A DNA stretch of 64,000 bases from an uncultured bacterium. Its GTDB lineage: Bacteria; Krumholzibacteriota; Krumholzibacteriia; JACNKJ01. Shown one piece after another: positions 12,834 to 51,277 of this stretch. The stretch is taken from assembly GCA_963695095.1 (NCBI GenBank), contig CAVOFT010000001.1, positions 2,848,001 to 2,912,000 of the forward strand, in the 5' to 3' direction. Position 1 is the first letter of the stretch, and each line of letters starts with the position of its first letter. Both the position numbers and the translations under genes were made by a program. Below the pieces are notes generated by a model. That model was not told the origin of the DNA and searched no databases. It saw only the letters and a list, made by a program, of their open reading frames with translations.

Positions 12834-13844
12834 CTAGTACAAGCTCTTCACCTGACTCCAGCTCGCGCGCGCGGCCGCCGTGTCCGTGCAGCCCTGGTCC
12901 CAGGCGCCGATGTGGAGGCCGCAGGGTGAATTCGCGGAGGTGCAAGGGGAGCTGCTGCGCAGCGTGAGATCGCCGCCCGGCGCATCGCAGTAGAGCGGAT
13001 CTTCGCTGATGTTCCCGTTGCTGCCCAGCTGATCGACGACGTCGCTGCTCCAGTCGCCGCCGGCATTGCCGTAGATGTCCGTGCAGCTGCACGCAAAGGT
13101 CCCGCTGCCGTAGGCGAACACCGCGCCGCCGGTGAGGCCGTCCGTGAACAGGCAGCGCTCCAGGCTCGCCGCCGCGTCGATCGTGACGATGGCGCTGGCG
13201 CGCACGTCGCAGCCATTGGCGGCGAAGGTGCACGCCGTGAAATCGGCATCGATGGCATAGAGGGCCACGGCACCGCCGTCGCGATAGGCGTGGTTGTCCA
13301 CGAAGGTGCAGCCGTTGACGACGAGGCTGCTGCCGCCGTAGCCGTAGATGGCGCCGCCGTCTTCGCCGGCGACATTGCCCTCGAACCAGCAGCCGTTGAG
13401 GACGACATCCGCGCCGCTCTCGCGGAAGTAGATAGCGCCTCCGTAGCCGCCGCCGACGTTGCCCACAATCCGGCAATCGTTCACTTCGGCGGCTGCATTC
13501 CAGAAGTAGATGGCGGGCCCGGAGGTGAAGCTGCCGCCGGTGATGACGAGGCCCTCGATCCGCGTGCCTGCGCCGGTGTCGACGAGCAGCAGGGCGCGAC
13601 TGTTGCCACCGGCGTCGATGGTGACGCAGTCGCCGATGCCGGTCTCCCCGCGCAGGGTGACCCCGGAGGGCAGGCCGAGGTCCCACTCCGCGTAAACGCC
13701 GCAGGCCACGAGTACCGTGTCGCCGGCCCCCGCTGCCGCCAGGCCGGCGGCGATGCTGGGCTGATCGGCGGGCACGTGAATCGTGGCCGCCTGGACGGCG
13801 GCGCTCCCGAGCAGGCCCAGCACGATCGCCATTCCCTTCTTCAT
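12834..13844 (-). CDS. Secreted right-handed parallel beta-helix protein with C-terminal SWSQVKSLY tail
   Basis: Signal peptide; ATIHVPADQPSI...GDTVLVACG; repeated GGAIY/F.GN motifs; NISEDPLYC...LRSSSPC. Confidence 0.85.
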   Translation of the reverse strand: MKKGMAIVLGLLGSAAVQAATIHVPADQPSIAAGLAAAGAGDTVLVACGVYAEWDLGLPSGVTLRGETGIGDCVTIDAGGNSRALLLVDTGAGTRIEGLVITGGSFTSGPAIYFWNAAAEVNDCRIVGNVGGGYGGAIYFRESGADVVLNGCWFEGNVAGEDGGAIYGYGGSSLVVNGCTFVDNHAYRDGGAVALYAIDADFTACTFAANGCDVRASAIVTIDAAASLERCLFTDGLTGGAVFAYGSGTFACSCTDIYGNAGGDWSSDVVDQLGSNGNISEDPLYCDAPGGDLTLRSSSPCTSANSPCGLHIGAWDQGCTDTAAARASWSQVKSLY

Positions 13845-36887: not shown

Positions 36888-39354
36888 ATGTCCAAGCGCC
36901 TCGTTGCCGCCCTGGCCTTGCTTTGCTGCTGCGTTCCCCTCGCGCTCGCCGACGGCGGCACGGGCAAGCGGCTCGTCCGCGTGGCCGGCTCCGGGGAGAG
37001 CGGACCCGCCCTGGCCGACCACGGGCTCCTGCTCGTCGCCGAGCTGCCGGAGGGCGACGGCTACCTCGCCTTCGCGGACGCTGCCGAGCTGGCGCGCCTG
37101 GCCGCCTGGGGCCGCGCGGTCGAGGTGCTCGACGCCATGGACGACGGCAGCCGCGAGTACCTGATCGCCTATCGCCACGCGCCGGGCGTGCTCCACACCC
37201 AGCACCCCGATCCCGCGGGCGCGCGCCTGCTGTGGACGGGCGCAAGCTATCGCCTGCTCAGCGTGCCGGCCGGGGACCTGGCGCTCACGCCGAGCTGCTT
37301 GCCCGACATCCAGCGCGTCTTCCGCCGGCCTCTGCGCTTCGTGCGCAGCCCCTGGGTGGAGCCCTCTCCGCAGCGGGACGTCGATCCCCAGATCGCCGCG
37401 ATGGTGGCGGGCGTCGTCCAGAGCGAGCTGCAGAGCCAGGTGCAGACCCTGCAGAACTTCGGCACCCGCCATTCGCAGTACGCGGGCGGCCTGTCGGCCT
37501 CGCAGTGGATCCGCGACCAGTTCCTCGCCTACGGCTACACGGACGTGAGCTTCCACGACTACAACAGCTGGAACGACAACGTGGTCTGCGTGAAGCCGGG
37601 CGCGGTCTACCCCGATCGCTACGTCGTGATCGGCGGCCACTACGATTCCACCAACTTCAGCGGCGACAGCTATGCGCCTGGCGCCGACGACAACGCCACC
37701 GGCACCGTGGGCGTGCTCCAGGCCGCGAAGGCCTTCGCGGCGGGTGAGTTCGAGTACACGACCATCTTCATCGCCTTCAGCGGCGAGGAGCAGGGCCTGG
37801 TCGGCAGCGACGCCTGGGCCGCGGCGGCCGCGGCGGCGGGCATGGACATCGTCGGCATGCTGAACCTGGACATGCTCTGCTACAAGGCGACGAGCGACGC
37901 CGAGGACATCGACATCATCAGCAACGCCTCCAGCGATCCGCTGGCGGACCTGGCCTACGCGGCGATCGCCGCCTACGTGCCCGAGCTGGCCGCCGTCGAA
38001 GGCTACCTGTCCGGCGGCAGCAGCGACCACGCCTCCTTCTGGGGCAACGGCTTCCGGGCCATCTTCTTCTTCGAGGACAGCAACGCCTACAGCCCCTACA
38101 TCCACACCGCTAACGACATCATCGGCACCAGCGCCAACAACTTCGACTTCATGTTCAAGAACGTGAAGGCGGCGGTCGCCACCTTCGCCGTCATGGCGCG
38201 GCCCTTCCACATCGCCATCCAGCACGAGGCGCTCGCGCACAGCGAAAGCCTGGGGCCCTTCACCGTCAGCGCCCTCATCCAGGCCGCCGCGCCGCTCGCG
38301 CCGGCCAGCCTGCTCCTCCACTATCGCGCGAACGGCGGCTCCTTCCTGACGCTGCCGCTCGCGGCCACCGGTCAGCCGGACGAGTACGCGGCCACGATTC
38401 CCGGCGCAAGCGCCGGGCAGCCTGGTGGAGTACTACCTGAGCGCGGCCGACCAGTCCGGCTACACGGCGACGGCGCCCGAGGGCGCGCCGGCCCTGCTCC
38501 ATGCTTTCCGCACGGGCGTCACGGCCGTGCTCCGCGATGACGTCGAGGCCGACCTGGGCTGGACCCTGGGCGCCGCCGGCGACGATGCCACGACGGGCCT
38601 GTGGATCCGCGCCGATCCCGTGGGCACCAGCTACCAGCCGGAGTACGACCACACGCCCGATCCCGGCGTGCTCTGCTTCGTCACGGGCAACGGCGCCCCC
38701 GGCGGCAGCGCGGGCGACCAGGACGTGGACGGCGGCAAGACCACCCTGCTCTCGCCGCTCTTCGACCTCGAGGGCGCGAGCTGGGCCGGGCTCTCCTACT
38801 GGCGCTGGTACACGGACGAGACCAGCCACGACGACGACTTCCTCGTGGACATCTCCAACGACGGCGGCGCGAGCTGGGTGAGCCTGGAGATCGTCGCCGA
38901 CAGCGCCTATCCCTGGGTGAAGGCCGTCTTCGACGACCTGGGGACCATCCTGCCCCTCACCAGCCAGATGCGCCTGCGCTTCATCGCCAGCGACACGGGC
39001 AGCGGCAGCCTGGTGGAAGCGCTCATCGATGACTTCGAGGTCGTGGCCGTCACCGACGACCTCACCGGCGTGGAGCCGGATCCGGCGGCGCCCGCCGCCC
39101 GCCTGGCCGCCTACCCCAACCCCTTCAACCCGAAGACGAGCCTGCGCCTCAGCCTGCCCAGCGCCGGGCGCGCCGAGCTGCGCGTCTTCGACGCCGTCGG
39201 CGCCGAGGTAGCCCGGCTCCTCGACGGGCCGGCCGCGGCCGGCCCCCTCGAGCTCAGCTGGGACGCCGGGGCTCTGCCCAGCGGCCTCTACTTCGCGCGG
39301 CTCAGCCTCGACGGCCGGCCGGTGACGAGCCTCAAGCTCACTCTTCTCAAGTAA
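36888..39354 (+). CDS. Secreted M28 zinc peptidase with C-terminal T9SS/FlgD-like CTD (one +1 frameshift near 38406)
   Basis: GGHYDS, PGADDNATG, FSGEEQGLVGS, NLDM, SDHASF, HT.ND; tail TGVE...YPNPFNPKT...LPSGLYFARL...KLTLLK. Confidence 0.88.
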
Positions 39355-41112: not shown

Positions 41113-41148
41113 GAAGAAGGGAGTCCGGCGAACCGGACTCCCTTCTTC
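41113..41148. terminator. Bidirectional terminator between convergent genes
   Basis: GAAGAAGGGAGTCCGG-cgaa-CCGGACTCCCTTCTTC. Confidence 0.8.
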
Positions 41149-41170: not shown

Positions 41171-41878
41171 CTAGTAGAGCGCCTTGACGCTGGACCAGGT
41201 CGAATTGTCCGTGGCCGTGGTCTCGAGACCCAGCGAGTAAGCGACATCGCGGGGACCCGTGGTGCTGGTCTGGCTGTAGGGCGTCCAGCGGGGATAGCCC
41301 CAGAACGCGCCGTCGCGATAGGCCTCGCCGCAGCCGTAGATGATGTCGGTGTTCAGCACACCGGCATAGGGAGCAGCCTGCACCGTGCCCGTGTCCATCT
41401 GGAAGCCAATCGACATGCCGGTCGTGATCGTGATCGGCGCCGGCAGCTGGGCCTCCATGTAGTAGATCCAGTAGCTGGGATCATTCTGATTCACCGTGGT
41501 CATCTGGGCCCAGGTGAAGTAGTGCGTCGTGACCGCGGTCTGGCCGGGAGGGCACTGACCGTTGTAGATGCGGATGTAGAGGCCATTGGGCGTGACGCCC
41601 GCGGCGCCCCACTGGATGCCATAGACGCCGACCTCGTTGAAGGACTGGCCGACCAGGCTGTTGGGAATGCCATCGGCGATCTCGGAGGCATAGGCCACCG
41701 AGGAGTTGCCGGCGGAGAGGTTGTACGGGCCAGTGGAAGCGGGCTGCGAGTAGAAGATGGCCCGGCCCATCTCGACATCGGCGCCGAAGCCGTCGGTCTC
41801 GATCGAGGAGGGACCGGCGGCCAGCGCCGTCGTCGCGCCCAGCGCGAGGATCGCAAGCAGAGTGAGCATTTTCTTCAT
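41171..41878 (-). CDS. Secreted hypothetical protein with C-terminal STWSSVKALY tail
   Basis: MKKMLTLLAILALGATTALA signal; Tyr/Thr/Gly-rich beta-type body; conserved 15-aa tail. Confidence 0.8.
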   Translation of the reverse strand: MKKMLTLLAILALGATTALAAGPSSIETDGFGADVEMGRAIFYSQPASTGPYNLSAGNSSVAYASEIADGIPNSLVGQSFNEVGVYGIQWGAAGVTPNGLYIRIYNGQCPPGQTAVTTHYFTWAQMTTVNQNDPSYWIYYMEAQLPAPITITTGMSIGFQMDTGTVQAAPYAGVLNTDIIYGCGEAYRDGAFWGYPRWTPYSQTSTTGPRDVAYSLGLETTATDNSTWSSVKALY

Positions 41879-42055
41879 CTGGTGTCATCCCCTTGAACGT
41901 TGTGAGGATTCGCCGCCATCGGGGGCCGCCCAGGAGCGGCCTCCCAAGAGGCGGTCGGCGGGACTCAAGGCCCCACCGCTGCATAATTTAACCATAGAGA
42001 ATGGCGGGTTGTCCAGTCCCGGAGACGGCCACGGGGCGCGGAAACCCCCATATCG

Positions 42056-42093
42056 AAAACGAAAACGGGCGGGGGCTTGCGGCCCCCGCCCGT
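42056..42093 (-). terminator. Rho-independent terminator after the 42133..42831 gene
   Basis: ACGGGCGGGGGC-5nt-GCCCCCGCCCGT then TTTCGTTTT on the minus strand. Confidence 0.8.
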
Positions 42094-42132
42094 CCTGCTT
42101 CGCCGCGATCCCGAAGGATCGCTCAACTCAAA

Positions 42133-42831
42133 CTAGTACAGAGACTTGACCGAGCTCATCGTGGCATCCTCGACAGCCGTGGTCACGCTGTAGAGGCAGA
42201 AGGCCATCCCGACGTAGGGCTGCACGGTCCAGTAGGGGATGTCCAGGAGAGGGAAGCCCTGCAGGGGAGCGCCGCAGTCGCCGCCTTCGGCGATGCAAGT
42301 CTGCCAGCCCCACTGGCCCTCGTCCGTGAACACCATGACGCCCTGGACCTCGACCCAGTAGCGCTGACCGGCGGTCTGCGCAACCGGCGTGATGTTCGCC
42401 GACACCGCATACCAGCCGTTGGTCACGTCATAGGTCTCGGTGAAGGTGTGAACTTCCTGCGTGGAGTGCAGGGCGCCGGGATAGCAGGCACCATTGTCCA
42501 GGTAGAAGGTCACGACGTAGTAGTCCACGGTGCCCGGGGTGACGGGGTAGTTCCAGTACTGGCCCCACCAGTCCATGGCATCGACGGAGGTGCCGCTGGC
42601 CGCGACGTAGTCGTCGGCGCAGCCGGAATCAAACGGATACACGAGATCGATCTGGCTGGAGAGGCCGGTGCCCGCAGGATCCGGCATCTGGCAGAACAGG
42701 GTGACGTCGCGGCTCGTGGTGACGCCGGGACCGCCGTTCCCCATCGGGGACGCGCTATCGAGCGTCGCGGCCGAAGCCAGCGAAGCCGTCATCAGAAGCG
42801 CAAAGAGGGCCATCAGTAGCTTGGAATGCAT
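42133..42831 (-). CDS. Secreted hypothetical protein with C-terminal ATMSSVKSLY tail
   Basis: AGGAGG RBS; signal peptide; ADDY...DWWG.YWN beta-sandwich-like body; conserved 15-aa tail. Confidence 0.8.
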   Translation of the reverse strand: MHSKLLMALFALLMTASLASAATLDSASPMGNGGPGVTTSRDVTLFCQMPDPAGTGLSSQIDLVYPFDSGCADDYVAASGTSVDAMDWWGQYWNYPVTPGTVDYYVVTFYLDNGACYPGALHSTQEVHTFTETYDVTNGWYAVSANITPVAQTAGQRYWVEVQGVMVFTDEGQWGWQTCIAEGGDCGAPLQGFPLLDIPYWTVQPYVGMAFCLYSVTTAVEDATMSSVKSLY

Positions 42832-43026: not shown

Positions 43027-43773
43027 TCAGATTCCGAAGCGGATCGTCACGGCGACGTAGGGCCCGCTGCCCGCCTCGAGATCGATCGCGCCGACGAGGG
43101 CCGTCTCCCCTTCCAGGGTCCAGTCGCCGCTGGCCAGCTCATAGCCCCCTTCGGTCAGGATGCCCACCCAGCGGGCGAGGCGCAGGTCGAGACCGACGTG
43201 CGGCCGCAGCAGCAGGAAGAGCTGCTCCCCGCGCAGGTAGACCTGGACGATGCCCGTGTCGCCGGCCCTTCGCTCCACGGTGACTTCGCTGGCGCCGCCG
43301 CCGAGGGCCAGGCCGCCCTCCACGAAGATCCGCTTGTGCAGGGGCAGGACGCCCTTGACGTCGAACCAGCCGGCCCCGCGGCTGAAGCGGCTGAAGTCGT
43401 CGCCACGCCGGGATTCGGCGGCGCCGCCGTAGCCGCCGCCGCCCAGGGCGACGAAGAGCTTGTCGCCGCTGTGCATGCTGAACCAGCCGGCGCCGCCCCA
43501 GCTCAGGGTCTTCTCGGGCAGCGCGATGAGGCCGGCCGGGTGCTCCGCCAGCGCGCGGTTGGCCGCCTCCAGGTCCAGCTCCCGCCAGACCATGCTCGGC
43601 CCGCCGCCGGTGCCGGTGCCGTCCAGGTAGTCGTCCTTGAACTCCTCCTCCTCCCAGAACTTGTCGAAGTCCTTGCTGAGGTCCTCGCCGATGGGGGGTG
43701 TCTGGGCGGGCGGCGTCTGGGCCGCCGCCGGCAGGGCGGCAAGCAGCACGAGCAGGATCGCCAGGCGGGTCAT
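43027..43773 (-). CDS. Outer-membrane beta-barrel-like hypothetical protein
   Basis: Signal peptide; Gly-rich amphipathic strands; ends VAVTIRFGI. Confidence 0.6.
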   Translation of the reverse strand: MTRLAILLVLLAALPAAAQTPPAQTPPIGEDLSKDFDKFWEEEEFKDDYLDGTGTGGGPSMVWRELDLEAANRALAEHPAGLIALPEKTLSWGGAGWFSMHSGDKLFVALGGGGYGGAAESRRGDDFSRFSRGAGWFDVKGVLPLHKRIFVEGGLALGGGASEVTVERRAGDTGIVQVYLRGEQLFLLLRPHVGLDLRLARWVGILTEGGYELASGDWTLEGETALVGAIDLEAGSGPYVAVTIRFGI

Positions 43774-43807
43774 CCGGTCTCCCTTCGCTGTCAGCGCCCG
43801 CGGGCGC

Positions 43808-44806
43808 TCACTTGAGATGAAACTCCAGGACATCGCCATCGGCCACCGGATGCGCCCGGTCCACCGTCTGGCCGTCGAACTTGCCCGAGCCCCAGAGGCG
43901 GGCCGAGGCGAAGCGCTCCACGAATTCCCGATGCACCTTGGCCGCCACGTCGATCACCGTGCTGCCGATGGGTAGCAGGTAGGGTGCGCCGGCGGCCAGC
44001 GGCTTCCCGGGCGCCTTCGTGTAGATGCGCACGAGCTGCAGGGCCGCGAAGACGGTGTGGGCGAAGTTGTCCAGGCCCTGCGCGCGGGTCACCGACACCA
44101 GCACGCGCGGCCAGCGGCCCCCGATCAGCTCCGTGAGGAAGTCCAGATTGACCGGCGCGTCCGGGTGGTCCGCCTTGGTGGCCACGAGCAGCGTGGCCCG
44201 CTCGTTCTGGGCGCGCAGGGGGTCGGCGGTGTCGACCTTGTCCACCAGGCGCAGGCCCCGCTCCTCGAAGCCGGCGTCGATGGTCTCCACCATCTCGCAG
44301 CAATCGGGCGCCGAGAGGTCGGCGATGAGCAGGATGAGGTCGGCGGCGCGGGCCTGGTCCAGCAGCCAGGGCTCGAGCGGCCGCTGCAGGACCGGCGGCG
44401 TGTCCACCAGCTCGATGGCGATGTCCTCCCAGCGCATCATGCCGGGCTGGGGCAGGCTGGTGGTGAAGGGGTAGTCCGCGATCTCGGGGCGGGCGGCGGT
44501 GAGCGCGGCGAGCAGGCTGCTCTTGCCCGCGTTGGGGGCGCCGACCATGAGCACCTGGGGCGCGTCGCCGTGGGGCAGGTAGTAGGGGTTGTGGACCTTG
44601 CCCTTGCCGGTCTTCTTGGCCTGCTCGATCTGCGCCTGCAGGGCCGAGAGCTTGCGGTTCAGCTCGGCGCGGATCTTGTCGGTGCCCTTGTGGTGGGGCA
44701 TGATCGCCATCATCTCGCGCAGATGGGCGATCTTCTCCTCGGGCTCGCGGGCCGCCTTGAAGCGGTCCTCGGCCTTGTGGTAGTGCGGCGGCAGGTTGGT
44801 GGGCAA
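43808..44806 (-). CDS. OBG-HflX superfamily GTPase, DRG-like, with C-terminal TGS domain
   Basis: TTG start after GGAGG; MPTNLPP...[36 protein letters not shown]...STV.DVA.KVH...DGDVLEFH. Confidence 0.88.
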
Positions 44807-49904: not shown

Positions 49905-50360
49905 CTATCGCGTGATCGTGATCTTTGCCTGCCCCATGGCTGCGCCGACCTGCAGGCGCGCCAAGAAGATCCCCGACGGGAGCGCCGTACCGTCACCCGC
50001 TTGACCATCCCAGGTGATCCCGTGGGCGATCGCGTCAGCAGTGACATGCTCGCTCCAGACGCGTGCCCCTGCCACAGAATAGATCTCTAGCACGCCCGCT
50101 CCGGTGGCGCGCACCGGCAACTCGGCCTGGAACACGATCGCACCGCGCGCTGGATTTGGTCGCACCACGAGGAGCAGGCTCGGTTCGCTCGCGCTCTCAG
50201 TGGATGGCACCGTCGTAAGCGTCGCCGCCACCTCGCCGACTAGTCGGAATGGACCGCAGCTTCCCTCCTCGCCGTCGACGACGAGGTAGTATGTGCCCGA
50301 GGTTAGGAACACTAGCTGCACAGACCAAGAGAACTGCGAGGATCCTGCAACTGCGCCGCT
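49905..50360 (-). pseudogene. 5'-truncated remnant of a CTD-bearing secreted protein (end of a PPC-like domain plus CTD)
   Basis: TSGTYYLVVDG..G.CGPF, RPNPARG...LEIYSVAG.RV...WDGQ..DG..LPSGIFLARL; no signal peptide or convincing start. Confidence 0.6.
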
Positions 50361-50413
50361 GGCGGGAGCCGTTGGCCCAAGTCGCGTTCGAAGTCGCTGC
50401 CATTCCCATCCTC

Positions 50414-51277
50414 CTATTCTCTTCCTGGCCGCTCCGGTCGCTTGAGCTCCACGACTACCGTTTGCTGGACCCCGGGTTCGCTGCCTTTCCAGGGGATGCG
50501 GTCGATGAGAATCGTCTGATTGGTGATCCAGAGCGGATTCTGTTCGATCCACTCCTGCGTCTCCAAGAGCGGCCAAACACCTCCGGTTGCGGGCTCGGCG
50601 ATCCATAGATCCGCGGCCGTGGGATCTTCACCCATAGAGTCAAGGGCCATTGGCTTAGTGAAGGCGAGCCAGCGCCCATCTGGCGACCATGAATAATCGT
50701 AGTCTGCAACGACCTTGAGCGTGTCGAGAACGCTCACCTCGCCCGAAGGGACCCACACAACATAGAGCAATTGCAGGGGCTGTCCGTAGATCCCACCATT
50801 CACCGCGAGGGCTTCCCCATCCGGGGACCACTTCGACCAGCTTCCAGCTACGGGGAGAGGCGGGTCGATCACAATCTGCCGGGACGCAAGCTCGAGCACA
50901 ACAAGCTCGTGATACTCTGCAGCGGACTTCCACAAGACGCAGCTGATGTACTTGCCGTCCGGGGACCACTTGGGTAGGGAAGCATTGCCATCAATCAGCG
51001 GCACAGCTTCCCCCGTCCGCAGATCCTGAAGCTCGAGGTGGGGGCGGTGGTCTTCGATGCGGACGAGCGCCAGCAGGGAATCTGGGCCATGAGCGCTGTT
51101 CAAGTCCGGCGACGGAAAGAGATACCCTGAAGCATCCTCAAAGGATACCTCGCCTGGCTGGCGCTCCCGGACAGCACCCACGGTCCAGGGAGATTGTGCC
51201 GGGATGCAGCCAGCTTCACTTGCGGCCACTGCCAGGCTGCTGGCCAGGATCGCAGCGCGAGCGATCAAGAAGCGCAT
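50414..51277 (-). CDS. TolB/PD40-like beta-propeller protein, atypical codon usage
   Basis: Signal-like N-terminus; three WSPDG repeats; many A/T-ending codons. Confidence 0.75.
   Translation of the reverse strand: MRFLIARAAILASSLAVAASEAGCIPAQSPWTVGAVRERQPGEVSFEDASGYLFPSPDLNSAHGPDSLLALVRIEDHRPHLELQDLRTGEAVPLIDGNASLPKWSPDGKYISCVLWKSAAEYHELVVLELASRQIVIDPPLPVAGSWSKWSPDGEALAVNGGIYGQPLQLLYVVWVPSGEVSVLDTLKVVADYDYSWSPDGRWLAFTKPMALDSMGEDPTAADLWIAEPATGGVWPLLETQEWIEQNPLWITNQTILIDRIPWKGSEPGVQQTVVVELKRPERPGRE

Follow-up and report, generated by a model that had tools for sequence, protein, structure and literature searches.

The window, by which we mean the whole stretch of 64,000 nucleotides analysed here, encodes three predicted exported proteins that end in a similar 15-residue C-terminal tail, two of them from adjacent genes (Table 1). 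An earlier note on this DNA had placed an ungapped 15-mer at the end of each, and all three lie where it put them, on the minus strand and directly before a TAG stop. As only 26-29 of 48 bases are identical between any two, conservation is at the protein level, which the note had argued from the differing codons. Its claim that the protein bodies are not homologous holds in so far as BLASTP aligns the tails only for the adjacent pair, but phmmer gives a faint match of 6.3 bits; with this match and their similar length, the proteins of 41171-41878 and 42133-42831 may be remote paralogues. In the ESM Atlas, the 235-aa protein has look-alikes in clusters of Zixiibacteriota, Eiseniibacteriota and Krumholzibacteriota. 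The beta-helix protein has paralogues at other places in the genome, in which a full T9SS-type C-terminal domain stands at the junction where the tail would be. The hairpin between the two adjacent tail genes suggests separate transcripts. Directly upstream of this pair, 43027-43839 (minus strand) encodes a small beta-barrel-like protein with a signal peptide and no Pfam match, and this gene does not recur among the tail-gene neighbours at 68 loci.

Table 1. Genes, tails and related features of the window.
Feature	Position	Strand	Remarks
Exported 336-aa right-handed beta-helix protein	12834..13844	-	Tail at end
Tail and stop of beta-helix protein	12834..12881	-	
Cleavage-site-like half, T-A-A-A	12870-12881	-	
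Neighbour ORF ending in type A T9SS sorting domain (long address form)	38425..39354	+	TIGR04183 23.6 bits, cut-off 23
Hairpin separating the 41171 gene from the aldehyde dehydrogenase gene that converges on it	41113..41148		Seen in sequence; absent from terminator-scan list
Exported 235-aa protein	41171..41878	-	Tail at end; no Pfam or NCBIfam family
Tail and stop of 235-aa protein	41171..41218	-	
Helix half	41174-41200	-	
Cleavage-site-like half, T-A-T-D	41207-41218	-	Predicted cut after T
Terminator-like hairpin between the two tail genes	42062..42096	-	Consensus match only
Exported 232-aa protein	42133..42831	-	Tail at end; partial DUF7901 match
Tail and stop of 232-aa protein	42133..42180	-	
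Cleavage-site-like half, T-A-V-E	42169-42180	-	
ORF ending in FlgD_ig / type A-like sorting domain	49905..50606	-	PF13860 27.4 bits, cut-off 27; TIGR04183 19.8, below cut-off

The tail recurs at the ends of proteins across the genome

If the tail is a sorting signal, then a scan of the proteome should return tens of C-terminal hits, as the earlier note had predicted. Across the whole genome (3.64 Mb, 70% G+C), a profile built from 44 seeds matched 68 ORFs at most four residues from the stop and 6 internally, in search spaces of 206,925 near-stop and 5,409,634 internal positions, a comparison that is circular for the 44 seeds only. A regular expression run over 41,385 stop-to-stop ORFs gave 44 C-terminal and 3 internal matches, so that by either method the tail is far more frequent than chance. 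The 65 best tails have the consensus T/V, A/P/G, T/V, E, x, x, S/T, W/F, S/G, x, I/V, K, S/A, L, Y. Seven residues had been called invariant from the three window sequences; K12 (63/65), Y15 (60/65) and L14 (58/65) are nearly so, but the other four vary genome-wide, with T1 in 42 tails, A2 in 39, S9 in 45 (G9 in 20) and V11 in 25 (I11 in 37). Position 2 is A or G in 45/65 and Pro in 14/65, while position 3 is V in 24/65 and T in 28/65.

No Pfam or NCBIfam model covers any of the 137 tails scanned, 0/137 match TIGR04183 or PF18962, and the family-model search that the note had proposed found no curated model. No match among solved structures was obtained for the last 40 residues, and the literature searched, mostly open-access, holds no description of the tail that we could find. 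The tails have neither a transmembrane helix nor a basic cluster, as had been noted for the first three: a 19-residue window above Kyte-Doolittle 1.6 lies within the last 40 residues in just 1 of 65. The tail is a real, widespread C-terminal signal without an existing model.

The bodies of the 65 tail proteins are as diverse as a sorting signal had been expected to show, falling into 40 BLAST families, the largest of which comprises 12 beta-helix proteins. Signal peptides, predicted for nearly all carriers, were found by a simple heuristic at 59/65 N-termini; with a stricter start window, 50/62 tail genes have a signal-peptide-like start versus 743/2481 other genes (30%). Tail proteins have a median length of 222 aa and a maximum of 460, and domain-bearing proteins a median of 572. 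Pfam recognises a family at E 0.001 in 10 of the 39 full-length tail proteins scanned here. Tail genes also cluster with domain-bearing genes, 27/62 lying at most two genes away, versus 10.8 at random and a maximum of 22 in 2000 draws.

Most tails of the genome stop exactly at Tyr, which would suit a tag recognised by a tail-specific protease of the periplasm or by a PDZ/TPR protein, acting in quality control or maturation. However, extensions of 1-3 residues past Tyr (R, RD, GF, VPE) are common, and among the cargo are surface proteins of adhesin-like and beta-helix type with paralogues that rely on T9SS domains. We regard such a tag as highly improbable.

A 48-residue ORF (G000:C1:736712-736858, minus strand) consists almost entirely of signal peptide and tail, and may be the smallest form of a natural substrate or else what is left of a gene. 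At L011 (G000:C1:2926429-2929969, minus strand), three paralogues carry tail variants, two of them extended past Tyr. Two of the three have lipoprotein-like N-termini; lipoproteins with the tail would be odd T9SS cargo.

The first half of the tail resembles a T9SS cleavage site

Judged from its sequence, the tail is made of two halves, a cleavage-site-like stretch at residues 1-4 and a predicted short helix at residues 7-15. The earlier note had set the tail apart from T9SS C-terminal domains by length alone; the tail is indeed shorter, but that contrast missed the first half, which matches a T9SS cleavage-site motif. This two-part anatomy, as read from sequence, is new here. We derived the motif by expectation maximisation on 146 linkers that precede type A-like domains, with no tail included, and obtained T (0.76), then A (0.57), G (0.21) or P (0.09), then V (0.45) or A (0.39). 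Its best fit falls on tail position 1 in 45/65 tails, with 28 offsets scored, and in 88/136 tails of a mixed set, with 18 offsets. The simple form T[AG][VA] is present in 74/148 linkers versus 12% of shuffles.

Within the genome, paralogues align as far as this motif and then carry either the helix half or a full domain. The pair at C1:122456 and 2999889 has C-V-L-T-G-V-E in common before tail or full domain, and the pair at 2970300 and 745261 has T-A-A-E-E. No ORF of this genome carries both a tail and a full domain. At L012 (G000:C1:2971713-2972840, plus strand), a beta-helix protein has a long, domain-type linker ahead of the helix half and looks like a form midway between tail and full domain.

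Tail residues 1-4 also resemble measured PorU cleavage sites. Those of Porphyromonas gingivalis are reported as X/(GSA)(VLI), for example EGT/SIAD, EPT/ATEQ (the HBP35 site) and AN/GVED (PMC4560394), and Prevotella intermedia is described as preferring PT/GI (PMC11969387). Pro directly after the predicted cut, which is found in 14/65 tails here, in 56/136 of the mixed set and in 9% of long-domain linkers, departs from the small-residue rule of these sites. PorU cleavage has moreover been called sequence-independent (PMC4804311), so the common linker motif may reflect common descent rather than use. With these points weighed, the tail is probably a minimal T9SS signal that is cut by PorU.

Tail-bearing genomes mostly encode T9SS components

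This genome encodes a PorU (NF033707 440.9, cut-off 420), a SprA (TIGR04189 535.9, cut-off 200) and, directly after porU, a PorV-family gene that passes the family model and not the equivalog model. The nearest named relatives of this PorV are from Candidatus Krumholzibacteriia, at 84% identity, which makes that phylum the probable one of the host. FlgD_ig matches occur in at least 148 places, and a profile made from them detects 178 ORFs, in 161 of which the matched part is at the extreme end; these matches represent the type A-like address domains.

Beyond this genome, the DNA pattern of the helix half is present in 151/151 sampled genomes of the same phylum, at 1-70 matches each, versus 0-4 matches for reversed-pattern controls. 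A stricter pattern run against all species genomes returned at least 137 stretches, and the titles among the matches listed are mostly Eisenbacteria, Krumholzibacteria, Latescibacteria, Gemmatimonadota and Fibrobacteraceae. We checked T9SS genes in 50 genomes of the matches listed and dropped one (G175), where the hit was a 15-residue chance ORF. Among these matches listed, the 49 genomes with a true tail have a PorV match in 49/49 cases and SprA in 47/49; a PorU-like gene is found in 46/49 at E 1e-40, of which 40 score above the PorU cut-off (11 candidates scored per genome). As a side observation, the Calditrichia-like genome G152 (locus L022) has 15 PorV-family matches. Five further tail genomes gave a more mixed result: three have SprA, G402 has PorV-family and PorU-like genes without a SprA match, and G401, a fragmented assembly, has 4 tail-pattern matches and no SprA, PorU or PorV match.

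The tail could instead belong to a separate export or anchoring enzyme that merely shares its hosts with T9SS. The helix half is unlike known T9SS motifs, the carrier phyla are all related so that ancestry can give the co-occurrence, and the G401 tails come without T9SS matches. However, the tail-pattern matches of G401 come from four contigs that measure 2.1-4.3 kb, and type A-like domains are present on two of them as well, which is expected of mis-binned pieces; this counter-example looks like mis-binning. Furthermore, the tail swaps with T9SS domains after one common motif, and we found no dedicated neighbour. A separate enzyme is, in our judgement, improbable. The earlier note had proposed a dedicated export or anchoring tag; a sorting signal is supported, but on this evidence the most probable machine is T9SS itself and not a separate one.

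A single-copy fibronectin-III protein carries the tail in other classes

Three pattern hits are proteins of 130-145 residues with a signal peptide, one fibronectin-III domain and the tail. Their relatives come from Calditrichia, Melioribacteraceae, Fidelibacterota and Ignavibacteriales, from Rhodothermus marinus (WP_012842694.1), Rhodocaloribacter litoris and Cyclonatronum proteinivorum, and from many Hymenobacter species; with the exception of one UniRef label, they are labelled hypothetical, uncharacterised or fibronectin-III. The present genome has no match to this family at E 0.001. When representatives were searched by HMMER with this family, most of the proteins returned were large ones with fibronectin-III repeats, on which the tail was not mapped. 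The residues [GSA][VIL] stand five and four positions before Trp in 35/43 orthologues, and Rhodothermus-like carriers have P-T-A-[VI]. The linker motif of the present genome misfits this family at the same offset, the family's offset being one residue shorter.

In the phylum of G194, 78 of 201 sampled genomes matched the carrier; after four weak ones without a tail-reaching match were dropped, a tail-reaching carrier remained in 74/201, in essentially one copy each. Each of the 74 encodes SprA together with a PorU-like gene (one PorU below cut-off), and in the same 201-genome sample the carrier is found in 0/39 genomes without SprA and in 0/16 with SprA and no PorU. As 88 SprA-positive genomes of the sample have no carrier, the protein is not a universal core component of T9SS. 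The co-occurrence of carrier, SprA and PorU is confounded by lineage and is weak as statistics. Of the SprA-less genomes, 37/39 belong to one interleaved group, or about one loss. Similarly, 11 of the 16 SprA-positive, PorU-negative genomes belong to a group of 49 that has a single carrier, so 0/16 is expected from lineage; the other 5 give P 0.15, and within groups the PorU contrast does not reach significance.

The second half is a predicted helix

The helix half follows the pattern [ST]-[WF]-[SG]-x-[IV]-K-x-L-[YF] and shows no resemblance to known T9SS motifs. An AlphaFold2 model of the single-copy carrier has a beta-sandwich, which Foldseek matches to fibronectin-III domains, and a terminal helix at 119-129, the last 11 residues; mean pLDDT is 88 and that of the tail about 70. 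Over residues 7-15 the hydrophobic moment has its peak close to 120 degrees (0.47), compared with 0.32 at 100. Of the amphipathic helix that had been suggested, a helix is predicted for the single-copy carrier, and the moment peak lies off 100 degrees.

C-terminal anchors of some penicillin-binding proteins bind the membrane as amphipathic helices. The tail might likewise attach to one face of a membrane, whether periplasmic or at the cell surface, with no protein reader, and the helix modelled at the end of the single-copy carrier and the aromatic and aliphatic residues at positions 8, 11, 14 and 15 would fit this. Nine residues are short for a membrane anchor, however, the moment peak is at 120 and not 100 degrees, and K12 in 63/65 tails points to specific recognition. 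Membrane binding would also leave unexplained both the cleavage-like half and the absence from SprA-less genomes, and we think it quite unlikely.

Candidate readers of the tail

If a dedicated protein reads the tail, then its gene might lie nearby. We surveyed 80 loci, dropped 12 that were duplicates or chance ones, and found no neighbour of the multi-copy tails conserved above 3 of the remaining 68; the neighbourhood of the single-copy gene shows just housekeeping synteny. No type B domain matched the 137 tails scanned, and no PorP/SprF-like shuttle recurred as a neighbour at the 68 loci. PF11751 had no match in the genome, and its controls were silent too. When PorV of this genome (118 aligned sequences) was modelled in complex with a tail fragment of 32 residues (137 aligned sequences), the pair, run by itself, scored 0.02 against a mark of 0.32, which speaks neither for nor against binding.

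The genes porU, porV and an M6-like inactive protease gene stand in a row at L001 7887-16249 (minus strand), an order that recurs in many genomes of the G194 phylum. We rejected the M6-like protein as a dedicated reader: 18/74 carrier genomes have no strong match to it, and 38 non-carriers have the gene. Near the porU operon, at L001 18463-19551 (minus strand), lies a gene for topoisomerase VI subunit A, here in a bacterium. Eight further PorV-family barrels are encoded at G000:C1 positions 295935, 743511, 1351871, 1515083, 1822486, 1893542, 2395474 and 3032453. Six of the eight lie directly behind one large protein each, five of these six with a recognisable divergent C-terminal domain, and by this arrangement the barrels look like dedicated cargo-shuttle pairs; for this reason we do not favour them as readers of the tail.

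The helix might instead be a docking peptide that binds a T9SS-exported partner, which could be a cargo protein with a full domain, the complex that attaches cargo, or a surface layer. The tail protein would then ride through SprA or be held at the surface uncut, its first half a leftover linker. This hitch-hiking would fit the small size of tail proteins, their clustering beside domain-bearing genes, the frequent Pro after the predicted cut and the same co-occurrence data. Against it, we found no conserved partner gene, and the cleavage-like half keeps a fixed distance from Trp in 40 unrelated families and in a single-copy family over several classes, which is not expected of a dispensable linker. 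We consider hitch-hiking unlikely and return to the tail as a T9SS signal in its own right.

Discussion

We infer that tail proteins are exported and anchored, and propose a model in which the tail acts as a T9SS address. Sec would first carry the protein over the inner membrane, as the N-termini suggest. The T9SS would then read the last nine residues instead of a beta-sandwich domain of 70-80 residues, with the general shuttle PorV, PorU itself or another adaptor as candidate readers, and the small cargo would pass through the SprA translocon. Finally, going by the identity of the motif, PorU would cut after the Thr of T-[AGP]-[VT]-E, join the new C-terminus to a surface glycan and free a 14-residue peptide.

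The closest known system is the type A C-terminal domain of T9SS cargo (TIGR04183 / PF18962, here mostly PF13860-like). Like the tail, it pairs a Sec signal with a C-terminal address; in paralogues both come after one cleavage-site-like motif at a common junction, and both occur in the same hosts, with SprA, PorV as shuttle and PorU (NF033707) as sortase. It is, however, a beta-sandwich of 70-80 residues, whereas the tail has 15 residues with a predicted helix, is without motifs B, D and E, and sits on cargo of less than half the median size. T9SS signals are described as two major families, A and B (PMC12618676), and by sequence the tail is not a member of either. Type B domains with cognate PorP/SprF shuttles, as presented there, are a precedent for a signal class with its own reader, but are folded domains, often beside a shuttle gene (PMC12618676); the tail genes studied here have no conserved neighbouring barrel.

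A shrunken T9SS address has a precedent in the short signals reported from Prevotella intermedia, which have 40-55 residues and three beta-strands, keep motifs B, D and E for PorV binding, and are still cleaved at PT/GI-like sites and glycosylated (PMC11969387). Compared with the signals described in that report, the tail has the cleavage motif only, followed by an unrelated Trp/Lys/Tyr helix, and its lack of these strands and motifs weighs against the T9SS reading. The smallest signal shown to suffice in PMC4804311 is a 22-residue hairpin. Outside T9SS, LPXTG, PEP-CTERM, GlyGly-CTERM and MYXO-CTERM are, as portrayed in bioRxiv 10.1101/2023.06.07.544157, likewise short C-terminal tags on tens of unrelated exported proteins, made of three parts (signature motif, transmembrane helix and basic cluster); unlike these, the tail is without a transmembrane helix or basic cluster. 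T9SS is said to be possible in other phyla of the group, the tail-bearing ones not being named in the passages concerned (PMC11285876).

A wider proposal, which we advance tentatively, is that the tail is a further class of T9SS signal, 15 residues long, in which PorU may cut after residue 1 and a nine-residue helix may replace the folded domain. In Calditrichia, Ignavibacteria, Rhodothermia and Hymenobacter, this class could have been kept as a lone fibronectin-III protein in each genome, which may be an overlooked component or a regular client of the attachment machinery; in Krumholzibacteriota and Eisenbacteria the class could have expanded to dozens of small cargo proteins.

The T9SS signals described in the literature searched are folded beta-domains of at least 40 residues, and recognition by PorV is explained by their strands, so a 15-residue signal would need another mode of recognition. 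If the proposal is true, the tail would be a very small display tag, the shortest T9SS tag for outer-membrane export and surface display, and thousands of hypothetical proteins would be re-annotated as surface proteins, given a pattern present in 151/151 genomes of the organism's own phylum. With the carrier in Rhodothermus marinus (WP_012842694.1) and Hymenobacter, the question is within reach in cultured hosts, and a conserved carrier in culturable bacteria makes the idea of a T9SS tag testable.
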